Origin: Clostridia bacterium
GTDB lineage: Bacteria > Bacillota > Clostridia > Oscillospirales > CAG-272
Length of the DNA: 64,000 nucleotides
NCBI GenBank assembly: GCA_017937135.1
Contig: JAGBEE010000012.1
Location: 11,250-75,249 of the forward strand
Direction of reading: 5' to 3'
The translations under genes and the position numbers were made by a program. Numbering within the stretch: the stretch's first letter is position 1; each line of letters starts with the position of its first letter. This document shows, piece by piece, positions 10,972 to 47,843 of the stretch. The notes beneath the pieces are model-generated. The model saw nothing but the letters and a program-made list of their open reading frames with translations. It did no database searches and was not told the DNA's origin.

Positions 10972-12327
10972 TTATAAAAATTTAACAAGCTTGTAAATGT
11001 CGCCAGCACCCATTATAACGACACAGTCACATTCGCAATTTTTAATATAGCTTGAGGTGGCGCACAAATCCTGTAAGAAAATTCCACCACAATCACGCGC
11101 AAAGCCCTCATCAGTTATTTCATAAATGTTTTCCTCTCTTGCCGAGTATATTGGCAAAATAACAAGCTTACTTGCATCCTCAAACGCCTTTGTAAATTCA
11201 TCATAAAGGAAAAAAGTGCGCGAATAGGTATGAGACTGAAAAACACAAAGTATTTTTTTGTAGCCCATTTCCAAAAGGGCGCAAAGAGAAGCTTTTATTT
11301 CTGTTGGATGGTGAGCATAATCCATAAAAACAGGCGCACCTGTGTCTGTTTTCTTTATTAGCTCCATTCGTCTTTCACTACCCATAAATGATGAAATAGC
11401 ACCACAAATTACGCTTGGAGCGATATTGTTTTCGCTGGCAACCGAAAATGCACATAGGGCATCGTATATAAAGTGCTCACCAAAAAACGTTGACTTGCAC
11501 TTGCCAAGAAGCGCCCCGTTTTTATAGACCTCAAAGCCATAAAAATCGGGAGAGTGTATGATTTTTGCTTTATACATAGCTTCGCTTTTTATTCCAAAGG
11601 TTATTTTTTCCTTGGCTACAATAGAAGTCGATGCTTCATCATCTGCATTTATAAATACGCGCTTAGCCTTATTTGCAAATTTATTAAAGGAGCATTTTAT
11701 ATCATCGAGAGATTTGAAAAAATCTGGGTGGTCAAAATCAATGTTTAAAATCACTGCATCATCACAGGGCAAGGATAGAAAGGAGTTCATATATTCGCAC
11801 GCTTCAAATATACAGCACTGTCCCTTTTTTATTAAGCAAGCACTATCATACAGCTTCATTTCTGCGCCACAAAACGAGGTGGGATTTCTTGAAGCGTAGT
11901 CAAATATATGTGTAATTAGCGCGCAGGTTGTGCTTTTACCGTGCATACCCGATACACCTATTTTTGTTTTGTATCGTGAAATTATATAGCCAAGAAAATT
12001 AGCTCTTGAAATAGTTGGTATTTTTAACTCATTGGCTCTTTTATATTCAAAATTGCTCTCATCAATTGCGCCCGTAAATATTACCATATCCATACAGGAA
12101 ACATTATCGGGAGTTGAGTAATATTTTATATTACAAATTTTCTCAAGCTTTTTTGTAACACGGCTCCTTGTCCTATCATACCCAAAAACCTCCTTGCCAA
12201 GATAGACGCAATATGTGGCAAGAGAGGACATACTAATGCCACCAATTCCTATAAAGAAAATTCTTTTTGCATTTGTGAAAAAATTATGAATTTCATCAAG
12301 CTTAAAATTTGTATTTTCAATAGCCAT
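10972..12327 (-). CDS. murC: UDP-N-acetylmuramate--L-alanine ligase
   Basis: 451 aa with N-terminal FIGIGGISMS and the Mur ligase P-loop GVSGMHGKSTT. Confidence 0.93.
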   Translation of the reverse strand: MAIENTNFKLDEIHNFFTNAKRIFFIGIGGISMSSLATYCVYLGKEVFGYDRTRSRVTKKLEKICNIKYYSTPDNVSCMDMVIFTGAIDESNFEYKRANELKIPTISRANFLGYIISRYKTKIGVSGMHGKSTTCALITHIFDYASRNPTSFCGAEMKLYDSACLIKKGQCCIFEACEYMNSFLSLPCDDAVILNIDFDHPDFFKSLDDIKCSFNKFANKAKRVFINADDEASTSIVAKEKITFGIKSEAMYKAKIIHSPDFYGFEVYKNGALLGKCKSTFFGEHFIYDALCAFSVASENNIAPSVICGAISSFMGSERRMELIKKTDTGAPVFMDYAHHPTEIKASLCALLEMGYKKILCVFQSHTYSRTFFLYDEFTKAFEDASKLVILPIYSAREENIYEITDEGFARDCGGIFLQDLCATSSYIKNCECDCVVIMGAGDIYKLVKFL

Positions 12328-14204: not shown

Positions 14205-15986
14205 ATGGACATATTTGAAAAGAATGATAAACGCACTCACTATTGTGGCACACTCTCAAAGCAAAATGTAGGACAAAGAGTATGTGTGCTTGGTTGGACT
14301 CAAAAGCAAAGAGACTTAGGCAGCCTTATATTTATCGACCTAAGAGACCGTTCAGGCATTGTTCAGCTTGCGTTTGATGAAAATACAGAAAAATCTATCT
14401 TTGACAAAGCATTTACCGTAAGAGCAGAATTTGTTCTTTGTGCAAAGGGCGTTGTAAGAGAAAGAAGCACAGTAAATAAAAATATTCCAACAGGTGATAT
14501 TGAAATCGCAGTTGATGAATTTAAAATCTTGAACAAGGCACAAACACCACCGTTTGAAATTGTTGACGGTGGAGATGTTAAGGCAGAGCTTCGTATGAAG
14601 CACAGATACCTTGATTTAAGAAGACCCGAAATGCAAAGAAACATTATTGCTCGTTCAAAAATAGTTAATCTTACAAGAAACTACTTTAACGATAATGGCT
14701 TCATTGACATTGAAACACCAAACCTTATAAGACCTACTCCCGAGGGAGCAAGAGACTACTTAGTACCAAGCCGTGTTCACAAGGGTAATTTTTACGCGTT
14801 GCCACAGTCCCCACAAATCTATAAGCAGCTACTTATGTATTCTGGCTTTGACAGATACATACAAATAGCAAGATGCTTCAGAGACGAGGACCTAAGAGCA
14901 GACAGACAGCCTGAGTTTACACAAATAGATATGGAAATTTCATTTACAACAGAGGATGAAATTATCGCTATAAACGAGGGATTTCTCGCATACATTTTTA
15001 AGAATTTTATGAATAAGGAGCTTAAAACTCCATTCCAAAGAATGACCTGGCACGAGGCTATGGAGCGTTACGGCTCGGACAAGCCTGACATTCGTTTTGG
15101 CTTTGAGCTTACAAATATTTCCGATATAGTAAAGAATAGCGAGTTCAAGGTATTTGCAGGCGCTGTTCAAAACGATGGCTCAGTTCGCGCAATTAACGTA
15201 AAGGGTGGAGCTAAGTTTTCAAGGAAGGAAATCGATTCCCTTACTGAAAAGGCAAAGCATTACCACGCAAAGGGACTTGCTTGGCTCAAAAAAGCAAATG
15301 GTGAAATTTCCTCATCCTATGCTAAGTTCTTGACAGAGGATGAAAACAATGCAATAAATCAAAGACTTAATGTCGAGGATGGCGACCTTGTTTTAGTAGT
15401 TGCTGATAAAAATAAGGTAGTTTTCGACACCTTGGGCGCACTTCGTTGTGAATGTGCAAGGCGCTTAGGACTTTTAGACCCTATGGACTTTAAGTTCCTC
15501 TGGGTAACAGAGTTCCCACTCTTTGAGTATAGCGAGGAGGATGGCAGATACTACGCAATGCACCATCCATTCACAGCTCCAATGACAGAGGATTACGAAT
15601 ATATTGACACCGACCCAGGCAGAGTAAGAGCAAGAGCATATGATATTGTTCTCAATGGTACAGAGCTTGGCGGTGGTTCAATTAGAATTAACACAACAGA
15701 AATGCAAGAGCATATGTTTAGCGTGTTAGGTATTAGCAAGGAGGATGCAAACGAAAAGTTCGGCTTCCTGCTTGATGCCTTCAAGTATGGCGTACCCCCT
15801 CACGGAGGACTTGCATTCGGTCTTGACAGACTTGTAACCTTGCTTTTAGGTCTTGAGGACATAAGAGAGGTTATCGCATTCCCGAAGGCGCAAAATGCAT
15901 CTGAAATAATGTCTAAGTGCCCATCATTTGCAAATCCCGACGATTTAAAAGAGCTTGGAATTGCAATTATTGAATCAGAGGAATAA
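14205..15986 (+). CDS. aspS: Aspartate--tRNA ligase
   Basis: OB-fold N-domain plus class II core (FRDEDLRADRQPEFTQID, GGGSIR, PPHGGLAFGLDR). Start set at ATG 14205 with a GGAGGA RBS; the track ATG at 14169 overlaps hisS. Confidence 0.95.
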   Translation: MDIFEKNDKRTHYCGTLSKQNVGQRVCVLGWTQKQRDLGSLIFIDLRDRSGIVQLAFDENTEKSIFDKAFTVRAEFVLCAKGVVRERSTVNKNIPTGDIEIAVDEFKILNKAQTPPFEIVDGGDVKAELRMKHRYLDLRRPEMQRNIIARSKIVNLTRNYFNDNGFIDIETPNLIRPTPEGARDYLVPSRVHKGNFYALPQSPQIYKQLLMYSGFDRYIQIARCFRDEDLRADRQPEFTQIDMEISFTTEDEIIAINEGFLAYIFKNFMNKELKTPFQRMTWHEAMERYGSDKPDIRFGFELTNISDIVKNSEFKVFAGAVQNDGSVRAINVKGGAKFSRKEIDSLTEKAKHYHAKGLAWLKKANGEISSSYAKFLTEDENNAINQRLNVEDGDLVLVVADKNKVVFDTLGALRCECARRLGLLDPMDFKFLWVTEFPLFEYSEEDGRYYAMHHPFTAPMTEDYEYIDTDPGRVRARAYDIVLNGTELGGGSIRINTTEMQEHMFSVLGISKEDANEKFGFLLDAFKYGVPPHGGLAFGLDRLVTLLLGLEDIREVIAFPKAQNASEIMSKCPSFANPDDLKELGIAIIESEE

Positions 15987-16000
15987 AATGAGAATCCCGA

Positions 16001-16388
16001 CCTTAGCGTGATTCCTTAACGGACAAATCACGCTAAACGATGCTTGCCCTCACGGGCAAATGATGTTGCCTATGGCAATGATGTTCACTTTGTGAATGAT
16101 GTTGTGCCTTCGGCACAGTGAGCAAGCATCACATCATTGAAAACGTATGTGAGCAACATCATTATGCGAAGCAAAAACATAACTAACAGAAAAAAGAGAG
16201 GACATTTCGGATTTCCCGATTTGTTCTCTCCTTCTATTTGTATATGGGTTCCTCGAAGCGAAGTATGAGCTTTTTCGGTGGGCACATATATGGCTTTGAG
16301 CTTAGCCCAAGTGTATTTGACCGGTCAAATGTAATGCTCGCACTTAGCGGTGTTTTTCAAATTCTCCGCTAAGAATATCACCCATTCT
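16001..16388 (+). repeat. Intergenic repeat R1, copy A (hairpin-array element)
   Basis: Aligns by eye along its length to the reverse complement of 47272-47638. The core 16040-16140 matches at about 95 of 100 positions. Contains an array of short hairpins separated by AATGATGTT, and a hairpin plus T-run on the minus strand at 16190-16231. Confidence 0.8.
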
Positions 16389-16455
16389 GTCGGGATTTTG
16401 TTTATCTTCTTTTCATTTTTTTAAATACGTGCTATAATTACTATGAGGTGATATT

Positions 16456-45260: not shown

Positions 45261-47252
45261 ATGAAAAAGAAAATATTTTTTGTATTAATGATGGTTGCTT
45301 TGATGGTAACTATACTTGCTTCTTGTGGTGCTTCCTGTGAGGAAACAGGACACACCTTTGAAGAAACAGTTATCAAGGCTGCGACCTGTACAACAGCGGG
45401 CTCAGGAACTAAAAAATGTTCCGTTTGTGGTGTGGAAGAGCCTATGACAATTCCACCACTCAAGCACAAGCTTGACAAGAATAACCCTACAAGAACCGTA
45501 GAACCAACCTGTATGGAAAATGGTGCTACATACGCTAAGTGCCAAAATGCTGGCTGTGATTACGAGGAAAAGATTGCAACATTAGATGCAAGCCTTGACT
45601 ACTGTGATCTTGAAGAGAAGAAAACAGAGCCTACCTGCTTGGGCAAGGGTTATACTATGAAGGTTTGTAAGGTTTGTGGTAACGACCAGGATATGCAAAG
45701 CATTGATCCACTCGGTCATACTTATACAAGAGAAAACCCAACTGGAATTACATATAAAGCTCCAGTATGCTTAACTGATGGCTCTATTACAATCAAGTGT
45801 CTTGAATGTGATTTGGAAGAAAATGTTGAAGAGGGCGAATGGACCTACTCAAAATTGAACGATGAGTCATTGGAAATTCCAGAGGTTGTAAAAGCAATAG
45901 CTGCAAACTATGACCTTGAGCCACTTGAACATATTTGGGATGCAAAGAATGAAACACTCAGCGTTGCTCCAACATGCACGGAACCAGGCTACGATATGTG
46001 CAACTGCTCACGTGAGGGCTGTACAGCAGAAGCTGTTAAAACAGCAGATTACGAGCCGCTTAAGCACACATTTGAAAGAGATGGCTTTGATATTAACAAT
46101 GTAGCTCCAGAAGATCGCGAAACTATTATTTCTCCTTCCTGCTGGAACAATAATGGTAAAGACGTAGTTCTTTGCTCTGATTGTAAAGTACAAAGCACAG
46201 AGCACTTTATCGATTTACCTGCTCTTGAGCACTATATTACATACGATGCATCAGATGTAACAGCTGCAACTTGTACAGAGGGCTCATTTGAATACCGTAA
46301 ATGTACAGGTAAGGGCTGTCAATTGGAAAAAGAAAAATTCTATACAGGTGTTAATGCCCTCGGTCACGATATGGTTCTTTACGATGCATTGTTGACAGAT
46401 GGAGAGCCTACATGTAAAACACTTGGTAATTACCCATATCATTGTAGCCGCTGCGAAGCATTTGATAAAGATTATCAAATTAACTTAAAAGGCGAAACAC
46501 AAAAGGATGCGCCTCATATGGGATATACAGCCGGACAATTCACCAACACAGAAAAGGGTGAAAAGGCACCTACTTGTTACGAATATGGTGTATATTACTG
46601 TGAAGACTGTAAAACAACATTTACAGACAAGGATGATAATGCTTGTAAGCCTACAGGTATTCACAGCTACTCATCTGAATATGAAGGTAACGAAGTAGTT
46701 AATCCTACATGTACAGAAGAAGGCTACACAATTTACAGGTGTCAACAGCCAGGCTGTCAAGAGTTTGAACACAGAGATTATGTTGTAAGAGCTGCTCACA
46801 CATTTGATGAGGTAACTAAGGATGGTATCCTTGTATGTACATGTGGTGCACAATATATCAACACAACAACAATAATGAAGGTTGAAGGCGAAACTGCTCT
46901 TCCTGGAGTTGACGGTGTAACTGTTGCTCCAAATGGAACAAAATATCCTGATGCACCCCAAGCTATCGGTACAACCTCTAAGGAATTCAACTTCTCAGCA
47001 GAGGATAAGAACGAGGATGGAGTAAATGACAACCTCGCATACGGACTTATCGAGCTTAAGGGTACGGCTGATACTGTTTATACAGTAAAGGTTTACAATG
47101 CAGATGGTGAATGCACCACTCTAAAGGCTCTTGCATCAGAGCTTAAGGGCGAAACAGTTTATGTTGACCTCTACGAGTGCGACGATGTTGTTAAGGTAGA
47201 GATTTCTGCTACAACAGATGCAACAGTTTCCTTCTACTACAAAAAGGCATAA
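45261..47252 (+). CDS. Lipoprotein with about 10 tandem Cys-triad (C-x3-G-x5-C-x2-C ... H) repeats
   Basis: Signal peptide plus lipobox (MVTILASC). Repeats of the form PTCxxxGxxxxxCxxCG, each followed by (P/A)L(K/G/E)H. C-terminal domain of about 110 aa. RBS AAGGAG. Confidence 0.75.
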   Translation: MKKKIFFVLMMVALMVTILASCGASCEETGHTFEETVIKAATCTTAGSGTKKCSVCGVEEPMTIPPLKHKLDKNNPTRTVEPTCMENGATYAKCQNAGCDYEEKIATLDASLDYCDLEEKKTEPTCLGKGYTMKVCKVCGNDQDMQSIDPLGHTYTRENPTGITYKAPVCLTDGSITIKCLECDLEENVEEGEWTYSKLNDESLEIPEVVKAIAANYDLEPLEHIWDAKNETLSVAPTCTEPGYDMCNCSREGCTAEAVKTADYEPLKHTFERDGFDINNVAPEDRETIISPSCWNNNGKDVVLCSDCKVQSTEHFIDLPALEHYITYDASDVTAATCTEGSFEYRKCTGKGCQLEKEKFYTGVNALGHDMVLYDALLTDGEPTCKTLGNYPYHCSRCEAFDKDYQINLKGETQKDAPHMGYTAGQFTNTEKGEKAPTCYEYGVYYCEDCKTTFTDKDDNACKPTGIHSYSSEYEGNEVVNPTCTEEGYTIYRCQQPGCQEFEHRDYVVRAAHTFDEVTKDGILVCTCGAQYINTTTIMKVEGETALPGVDGVTVAPNGTKYPDAPQAIGTTSKEFNFSAEDKNEDGVNDNLAYGLIELKGTADTVYTVKVYNADGECTTLKALASELKGETVYVDLYECDDVVKVEISATTDATVSFYYKKA

Positions 47253-47271
47253 TTAAATTAAACACGACTCT

Positions 47272-47638
47272 ATTGGGTGATACCTTAGCGAAGAATTTAC
47301 ACTTTAGTAAAAGTGACAGCATCGCATTAGATTGGTCAAATGCGAATATATGCTAAGCCCAAAATATTATAACAAGCAGAGAAAGAGAGAACAAATCGGT
47401 TTTATAAGCCGAAATGTTCTCTCTTTTTTCTGTTAGTGATGTTTTTGCTGACGCAAAAGTGATGTTATGCTTCACATAATGATGTTGCTCGCAAAAGCTC
47501 ACAATGATGTGATGCTTGCCAACTGTGCCGAAGACACAACATCATTCACAAAGTGAACATCACTGCCGTAGGCAACATCATTTGCCCGTGAGGGCAAGCA
47601 TCATTTAGCGTGAATGCTCCGTTAAGAGCATCACGCTA
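47272..47638 (-). repeat. Intergenic repeat R1, copy B (inverted relative to copy A)
   Basis: The reverse complement aligns to 16001-16388. It carries one extra hairpin unit (about 47437-47459) relative to copy A. Confidence 0.8.
47384..47430 (+). terminator. Intrinsic terminator embedded in R1 copy B (serves the lipoprotein gene)
   Basis: AGAGAGAACAAATCGG (47384-47399) pairs with CCGAAATGTTCTCTCT (47409-47424), followed by TTTTT. The equivalent hairpin in copy A (16190-16231) faces the minus strand. Confidence 0.55.
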
Positions 47639-47734
47639 TTTGGAGTCCTGTTTTTTTATTCATCATATATTCACAGGGGCGTAATTTAAAATATTAGAAA
47701 AATCAAAAACAAAGGAATTTTATATAGAATTTAC

Positions 47735-47763
47735 TTGACAACTTAAATGCATAAATGTATAAT
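47735..47763 (+). promoter_or_regulatory. Consensus sigma-A promoter of the aromatic amino-acid operon
   Basis: TTGACA (47735-47740), a 17-nt spacer, then TATAAT (47758-47763). Confidence 0.55.
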
Positions 47764-47843
47764 ATATATTAAATAAATATAAGATTTATTCATATTTTAT
47801 ATTAAATATGTTTTATATCATTGGCAAAGGAGGAATAGATAAA

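Follow-up and report, generated by a model that had tools for sequence, protein, structure and literature searches.

Small gene-less repeats that occur in many copies between bacterial genes include BOX, RUP and SPRITE in Streptococcus pneumoniae and REP/BIME in enterobacteria; they are modular, form strong hairpins after gene ends and, in the case of SPRITE, are terminator-like. Here we describe a repeat of similar organisation in a Clostridia bacterium of the order Oscillospirales (CAG-272; GenBank assembly GCA_017937135.1). The window, that is, the whole stretch of DNA analysed, comprises 64,000 nucleotides (contig JAGBEE010000012.1, forward-strand positions 11,250 to 75,249). It contains two homologous copies of the repeat, copy A at 16003-16385 (+), next to aspS, and copy B at 47274-47638 (-), 31 kb apart and in opposite orientation. 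We put the probability at about 70% that both are gene-less members of a mosaic, non-autonomous repeat that is bounded by inverted repeats and has inserted into terminator loops in gut Clostridia. Judged from sequence comparison, the repeat is probably mobile.

As in BOX, RUP, SPRITE and REP/BIME, the modules of this repeat are exchangeable and its internal units vary in number. It differs from them in an array of forward and reverse words with covarying mini-hairpins, in its insertion specifically in terminator loops, and in a terminal hairpin that is conserved across Clostridia families; the likeness is one of organisation, and no sequence similarity is expected. REP and REPIN elements are mobilised by RAYT proteins, which are IS200/IS605-like Y1 HUH transposases, a system for which Nunvar 2010 and Bertels & Rainey 2011 are said to be the sources. 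The terminal unit is likewise a conserved palindromic hairpin here, and a double-headed element at C35:32834-33312 of the same genome (C numbers denote its contigs) resembles a REPIN doublet, but the GTAG head typical of REPs is missing from the element. The loops of REP palindromes are the insertion sites of IS1397 and ISKpn1, autonomous members of the IS3 family that have a transposase and give rise to a target duplication. Specific insertion at the centre of existing palindromes is common to both cases, whereas the present repeat has no gene and no visible duplication, and its targets are terminators of diverse sequence.

Intervening sequences of 23S rRNA, which may carry an open reading frame (ORF) for a PF05635 protein (S23p/IVP, an Avd-like four-helix bundle), also lie in the loop of DNA that encodes an RNA hairpin and are enclosed by a long stem. 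In contrast, both window copies are gene-less, their target is an mRNA terminator and not rRNA, and the array is found upstream of the IVP promoter rather than within an excised RNA. With miniature inverted-repeat transposable elements (MITEs) the repeat shares its small size, lack of coding sequence, multiple copies and terminal inverted repeats, as well as presence or absence between species at the aspS site; no target-site duplication was found, nor any autonomous relative that combines these termini with a transposase. A literature search on MITEs in terminator loops returned nothing relevant. A further comparison is with Gut-1 (RF01706), described as a noncoding RNA (ncRNA) candidate and recorded only from human gut metagenomes (Weinberg et al. 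2010, PMC2864571); we treat the present family as a relative of Gut-1, not as a member.

Copies, modules and termini

Alignment of 15990-16400 (+) with 47260-47660 (-) by MAFFT gives a mean column identity of 82%. A BLAST search of the source genome (1.85 Mb in 42 contigs, 93.7% complete) matches copy A to copy B with E = 1e-67 and finds four further full copies. An earlier reading of the window from sequence only had recognised two inverted homologous copies with a near-identical centre and patchier flanks, and this description is borne out: the copies are near-identical from the 5' hairpin to the terminator-like hairpin, and the 3' part is patchier and still homologous, in agreement with a nine-copy alignment. 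The similarity is not confined to a terminator-sized piece, a possibility raised in that reading, since the pairwise alignment spans the whole element (365-383 bp). Copy B has one 22-nt unit of word and hairpin more than copy A, and copy A has a 38-nt hairpin at 16246-16283 that is not found in copy B. The core folds more stably than its shuffles (z = -6.4). Neither copy contains a credible ORF, and our ORF check and survey of the neighbours agree with the sequence-only reading that there is none, nor an adjacent transposase. Its likening of the element to MITE, REP or BOX elements is apt for a small, gene-less, multi-copy and modular repeat with inverted termini.

The element is not, as had been thought, a two-copy one. 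The source genome contains six full copies of this type (two on C13 and one each on C1, C5, C33 and C17) and at least ten sister elements. The copies on C1, C5 and C33 are 98-99% identical in the core and have unrelated flanks. The sisters have the same 5' hairpin, terminator module and 3' module and another core word; their word types are G(U/A)UAUU forward with AAUAUC reverse, and GAAUUG forward with CAAUUC reverse. In the double-headed element, a terminal hairpin is present at both ends, and a GAAUUG and a GAUAUU array face each other across a shared terminator hairpin. Fragments of the terminator and 3' modules occur elsewhere in the genome, several of them at contig ends. Several contigs start or end within these elements (C3:1-300, C4:1-150 and C35:1-150), which suggests that the repeats break the assembly and that their copy number is undercounted.

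Of 24 genomes sampled from the genus, 20 carry this repeat family, which also extends to two other families of the order. A 28-nt variant of the terminal hairpin, GCGTGATACTCTTAACGGAGTATCACGC, occurs exactly in more than 120 contigs of metagenome-assembled genomes (MAGs) of gut Clostridia, from goat, sheep, deer, yak and other guts, and nearly always precedes an array, which may be of any of several word types. According to the depositors' own labels, these MAGs belong to Oscillospiraceae, Acutalibacteraceae, Christensenellaceae, Lachnospiraceae and other taxa. Occupancy spans many uncultured gut Clostridia, and annotation can mistake such repeats for regulatory leaders or small RNA (sRNA) genes.

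Four parts make up the mosaic of each element, namely a terminal hairpin of 34 nt, a word array, a terminator-like hairpin and a conserved 3' module. In the two window copies and the host terminators around them, these parts are arranged as follows.

15984-15986: stop codon of aspS
15992-16001 (+): left arm of the split aspS terminator stem, GAATCCCGAC, reverse complement of 16389-16397
16003-16036 (+): terminal 5' hairpin of copy A, with the left terminus, a TTAAC-containing loop and an internal copy of the right terminus, ATCACGCTAA
16003-16012: left terminus of copy A, TTAGCGTGAT
16038-16189 (+): hairpin array of copy A, forward and reverse words with mini-hairpins of 5-7 bp between them
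16038, 16061, 16079 and 16097: forward words (C/U)GAUG of copy A
16127, 16132 and 16157: reverse words CAUC(A) of copy A, with a degenerate one at 16178
16039-16047 with 16122-16130: the two strands of the long-range helix of copy A
16190-16245 (no strand assigned): terminator-like module of copy A, made up of an A-run, a two-tier hairpin AGAGAGGACA..TGTTCTCTC and a T-rich tail
16246-16283 (+): optional hairpin sub-module, CCTCGAAGCGAAGTATGAGCTTTTTCGG
16284-16385 (+): 3' module of copy A, with the GGGCTTAGCCC hairpin, the TTTGACCGGTCAAA palindrome, the CTTAGCGG..CCGCTAAG hairpin and the right terminus
16377-16385 (+): right terminus of copy A, ATCACCCAT, placed by the nine-copy alignment
16389-16397 (+): right arm of the aspS terminator, GTCGGGATT, complement of 15993-16001, followed by TTTGTTT to 16404
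47263-47270 (+): first arm of the host terminator of copy B, CACGACTC, behind a 663-aa gene ending at 47252
47274-47370 (-): 3' module of copy B, aligning to 16284-16385, with the right terminus ATCACCCA at 47274-47281
47371-47429 (no strand assigned): terminator-like module of copy B, aligning to 16190-16245
47430-47603 (-): hairpin array of copy B, with one reverse unit of word and hairpin beyond copy A
47605-47638 (-): terminal 5' hairpin of copy B, TAGCGTGATGCTCTTAACGGAGCATTCACGCTA
47643-47650 (+): second arm of the host terminator of copy B, GAGTCCTG, followed by a T-run at 47651-47661

The termini read TTAGCGTGAT and ATCAC(C/G)C(A/T)(T/A), with core ends GCGTGAT/ATCACCC. The 3' module ends in an inverted copy of the left terminus, which is imperfect in copy A and exact in C33b (ATCACGCTAA). 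Copy A had previously been described as bounded by CTTAGCG and CGCTAAG. The true termini are TTAGCGTGAT and ATCACCCAT, and, since the left and right termini are inverted copies of each other, the pair proposed before is half terminus and half internal hairpin of the 3' module. The motif GCGTGWT..AWCACGC is found 16 times in the source genome and 0-18 times per genome of the genus, against 0-1 for a reversed-pattern control.

The terminal 5' hairpin is kept in all copies, and its inner stem in copy B differs from that of copy A by compensatory changes. Its loop occurs in two orientations relative to the array, mostly as CTTAACGG and in about 5% as CCGTTAAG, a flip/flop of a perfect palindrome (C17:9459-9486 in the source genome, locus L006; L147, L159, L177 and L203). 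The terminator-like module is 85-100% conserved among copies, occurs also apart from the UGAUG-type array and has its stronger U-run on the minus strand; that of copy B is identical to the C1 copy (100% over 66 nt). The optional hairpin CCTCGAAGCGAAGTATGAGCTTTTTCGG is present in copy A, C33, C5, C22 and C36 and absent from copy B, C1 and C40. The 3' module is found next to other array types as well, and across the genus. Solo hairpins made up of left terminus, loop and right terminus are found within intact-looking terminators at C41:13029 and C32:20383. They look like remnants that deletion of the element body between the internal and the terminal copy of the right terminus may have left behind.

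Setting in split host terminators

Both window copies split the terminator stem of a host gene. In the minimum-energy folds of 15986-16404, the aspS arms pair around the insert in RNA as well as in DNA (z = -9.1 and -8.2, respectively). The host arms of copy B, 47263-47270 and 47643-47650, are complementary at 7 of 8 positions; TTTTTTTATT follows on the + strand. Copy-specific inverted repeats and a T-run flank copy A, copy B, C33, C17a, C17b, C22, C40 and C35b, and the double-headed element sits in a 12-bp split bidirectional terminator (ACAGATGCACAA / TTGTGCATCTGT). Copy A is sense to aspS, and copy B, in the terminator of the 663-aa gene, is antisense to that gene.

The same setting is observed in other genomes. 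We searched for a GC-rich 7-mer from the 24 nt upstream of an element that recurs as its reverse complement before a T-rich tail. A split arm of this kind, with the T tail, is found at +296 to +385 in 17 of 45 independent MAG loci (38%), compared with 3.0% in mismatched-locus controls. An earlier version of the test that accepted any 8-mer was discarded, as A-runs gave it a background of 24%.

Occupation of the aspS site differs between species. The element is absent from this locus in 29 of 29 genomes of the same genus, all of species other than the source, and many of these have a plain short terminator hairpin after the stop codon. For copy B, pheA was found in 47 relatives, in none of which is the element adjacent; because the upstream lipoprotein gene is not conserved in relatives, absence beside pheA is all that this site can demonstrate. 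The gene that starts at 47808, earlier taken to be pheA, is preceded at 47735-47763 (+), about 85 nt beyond copy B, by a promoter of perfect consensus (TTGACA, 17 nt, TATAAT).

Downstream of aspS, several relatives carry a small ORF (MNYTYIL.C.DGTLYCGWTN...; loci L040, L052, L057 and L061), which resembles a GIY-YIG/URI-type nuclease. The source genome has another gene after aspS than these relatives, so the neighbourhood is variable. Two further loci downstream of aspS in relatives (L060 and L042) contain other arrays of words and mini-hairpins, with the words GTGATAT and CATTTCAAG, which indicates that the array architecture is more general than the UGAUG word family.

The self-pairing array and its kinship with Gut-1

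In the array, the word UGAUG occurs four times in the forward half and the word CAUCA four or five times in the reverse half, with covarying mini-hairpins of 5-7 bp in between whose sequence varies while their self-complementarity stays. The structure counted comprises the mini-hairpins, a long-range helix and three word rungs. Scored on 19 homologues, 91% of its cells are paired, compared with 28-46% when the partners are slid, and 22 pairs have changed on both sides. For covariation, the structure scores 0.247 and shuffles score 0.103 ± 0.006. The words and mini-hairpins of the array have thus been kept complementary through many changes.

In the long-range helix, the first word and the 5' strand of hairpin 1 pair with GGGCAA(A/G)CAUC after hairpin 4, with three compensatory positions. 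In the copies of the source genome, a C-G pair is possible at one position only if the partner is the distal one, and this speaks for the long-range helix rather than a local hairpin there. In a sister lineage, all words switch jointly from GAUG/CAUC to GAAG/CUUC, and the first word changes to a pair of its own, UAAG with CUUA. Because of these joint switches and the coexistence of several word types, the words must match each other within an element and not one shared factor acting in trans. The predicted fold energies are -64.0 kcal/mol with the long-range helix, -66.0 kcal/mol for a nested ladder and -85.2 kcal/mol for the minimum-energy fold, which extends the word helices and opens some of the mini-hairpins. 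Nearest-neighbour energies do not decide between these folds.

An attempt to assign a strand from G-U versus A-C cells failed, as their numbers (53 and 45, respectively) are about equal and mirror-symmetric. U.G closing pairs are seen on the + strand for the forward half and on the - strand for the reverse half. The loops follow the same symmetry, being T-N-(N)-C in the forward half, the complement of GNA/GNRA, and G-N-(N)-A in the reverse half. A dedicated RNA from one strand should, by expectation, show more G-U than A-C cells; the symmetry suggests that the fold matters as DNA or on both strands, whichever is transcribed, and not as a single dedicated RNA.

The sequence-only reading had matched the element to no ncRNA family. 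This stands at the gathering scores of Rfam, at which a scan of the whole window yields no family that explains the element, and for copy A a scan at E <= 10 gives nothing explanatory and no match to Gut-1. Copy B, on the other hand, has a sub-threshold match to Gut-1 at 47534-47606 (-), with 35.4 bits (E = 2.4e-5) for a gathering cut-off of 50 bits, and a second one on the opposite strand at 47434-47490 (+), with 23.2 bits. The source genome contains 15 matches of 28-47 bits, all below the 50-bit cut-off and the best at 46.6 bits. In the cmscan alignment of copy B, model positions 1-77 cover the forward half end to end and all three stems are matched. This sub-threshold kinship, the split host terminators and the array of forward and reverse words with covarying mini-hairpins go beyond what had been noticed from the sequence before.

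Both families have three short hairpins and a constant linker of 7-8 nt that starts with (R)UGA, and the Gut-1 model can be aligned to either half of the array, with a change of strand between the forward and the reverse one. Both are associated with guts, and neither has a known function. They differ in the linker itself (AUGAUGUU here, GUGAAAU in Gut-1) and in their sources, the present family being found in MAGs from ruminant and other guts. Furthermore, the Rfam model is a half of 77 nt, from which the end modules, the long-range helix, the reverse array and the setting in terminator loops are missing. The comparison places Gut-1, an orphan in Rfam since 2010, as one half of a self-pairing array in a bounded, modular repeat of terminator loops.

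Candidate protein partners and competing readings

The source genome has a single PF05635 (23S_rRNA_IVP) gene, C35:17465-17812. The region C35:17090-17812 consists of two tRNA genes, a terminator, an array with the word AAUGAAG/CUUCAU and the PF05635 gene, and genes of this family are present in 45 of 50 genomes of the genus. In relatives the order is tRNA, terminator, array, a promoter TTGACA-17-TATAAT whose -35 box abuts the last reverse word, a ribosome-binding site and the PF05635 gene, which locates the array upstream of the PF05635 promoter. Downstream of the PF05635 gene, the GAAGTATGAG hairpin of copy A is found again, with a score of 36-39, compared with 16.5 ± 2.4 in shuffles (0/300). 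A derivation of the gene-less elements from gene-bearing cassettes fits these data and is not proven by them. Array and PF05635 protein could together form a mobile cassette of an undescribed kind that inserts in the DNA of RNA hairpin loops; the window elements would then be MITE-like derivatives, the oligomeric protein would recognise the folded single-stranded DNA or RNA of the array, and the array would keep the insert ends close to each other, so that the host hairpin can still close. We regard this as a speculative proposal, possible but doubtful. If it were true, terminators would be the targets here and rRNA helices those of the classical intervening sequences. Our literature search found no mobility or RNA-binding function for stand-alone PF05635 proteins.

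For the terminator-loop repeat itself, we envisage that copies spread by an insertion process resembling transposition, which targets the exposed loop of terminator palindromes and is catalysed in trans by some enzyme. The array would fold back so that forward words pair with reverse words and the mini-hairpins stand out as side branches, and this fold would place the two insert ends side by side. Such a fold and the two-way terminator-like hairpin of the element may jointly let the interrupted host terminator keep working, in which case insertions would be tolerated. If mobile, the repeat would have the unusual habit of targeting the loops of hairpins of diverse sequence, and it would do no harm, as its ends would be folded onto each other and it would bring a terminator in reserve; PF05635 would be its candidate protein partner, with a possible tie to rRNA intervening sequences.

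Several findings weigh against this account. No direct repeat or target-site duplication is seen at eight junctions, where the flanks are inverted as terminator arms, and no empty site with identical arms was found in a same-species genome or a metagenome contig. Even in the closest relatives, aspS is no more than about 83% identical; a metagenome search with the aspS end and left arm gave 0 matches, and this aspS allele seems absent from that collection. Three features hint at a function beyond selfish spread: very strong conservation of the array structure and of the hairpin loop; a bias in orientation, with a co-oriented ORF that stops shortly before the 5' hairpin (median distance 25 nt) in 45 of 56 elements; and a link to PF05635 genes, of which 16 of 30 sampled have an array at most 400 nt upstream and 2 of the 30 have one downstream. 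A consensus terminator scan made no call for the 16190-16245 module in copy A and called the inner stem only in copy B, so the putative function of this module is read from its shape. The search for a mobilising protein gave none: no protein family recurs in the neighbourhood of 80 elements (about 2 kb), and only spurious ORFs across the arrays cluster; blastn against phage and plasmid collections, including plasmid oriT regions, gave no match; and the source genome has no RVT_1 reverse transcriptase gene. A lead to a RAYT-like protein as the mobiliser did not carry over to relatives, whose 22 RAYT loci are flanked by ordinary terminators or by REPs of the GTAGGGG type.

The strong, covariation-supported structure and the terminator-like hairpin directly after the array would also be expected if the elements were sibling sRNA genes, each giving a structured RNA of about 240 nt that ends at its own terminator and acts in trans as a sponge or scaffold through single-stranded UGAUG/CAUCA words. 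Gut-1 was first filed as an ncRNA candidate, an A/T-rich TAAAAT-like box lies 15-20 nt upstream of each copy, and a weak promoter-like match is present at 15961-15989, inside the end of aspS. However, a conserved -35/-10 pair is absent upstream, and the A-rich box coincides with the stop codon plus the host terminator's A-tract. In an array whose grammar is mirror-symmetric, G-U cells are not preferred to A-C cells, and word types that differ within one genome argue against a common target in trans. The copies lie in split terminators at lineage-specific positions, and in the gene-bearing forms the array is upstream of the promoter and not in its own transcript. Altogether we judge sRNA genes to be a very unlikely explanation.

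A role in mRNA stabilisation or termination has been proposed for REP/BIME elements, and the present repeat might similarly be an accessory of 3' untranslated regions or terminators, once perhaps mobile and now kept by the host for protecting mRNAs against 3' exonucleases or for better termination. This possibility, which is compatible with insertion of a mobile repeat, would be in line with the very stable fold, with host arms that remain complementary and with the co-orientation of 45 of 56 elements, by which the array is usually part of the transcript of the upstream gene. The sense bias could equally stem from strand-biased insertion, though, and copy B is antisense to its host gene. Moreover, the genes served are unrelated, and the same genes occur in sister species without the element. 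We consider selection by the host as the main explanation unlikely. Two inverted copies 31 kb apart in the 64-kb window might, finally, be thought to reflect a local or segmental duplication of one intergenic region, which the sequence-only reading had held to be simplest if no further copies turned up. The BLAST search of the genome and the relatives show many: the four full copies on other contigs and the numerous partial and sister copies, along with unrelated flanks and a family widespread in other genomes, refute a local duplication, and we see practically no chance of it.

The RAYT-like candidate, the only one in the source genome, is an HUH protein of 167 aa encoded at C16:6395-6939, directly after a trpB-like gene. 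It has the motifs HIHLI ... YIYENP and matches Pfam Y1_Tnp with 18.6 bits, below the cut-off of 23 bits. About 30 nt past its stop codon there is a terminator hairpin, AATAGCGTGATGAAAATTCATCACGCTATT, with the same stem as the element terminus; apart from this hairpin, no terminal hairpin was found around a gene elsewhere in the source genome. The numbers of hairpins and RAYT genes do not go together, as genomes with 12, 11 and 11 hairpins have 0 RAYT genes and 0 hairpins are found with 2 RAYT genes. REP-like hairpins with a GTAG head (GTAGGGG..CCCCTAC) flank RAYT-like genes in several relatives (loci L128, L133, L120 and L116), and the source genome contains only about two of them.

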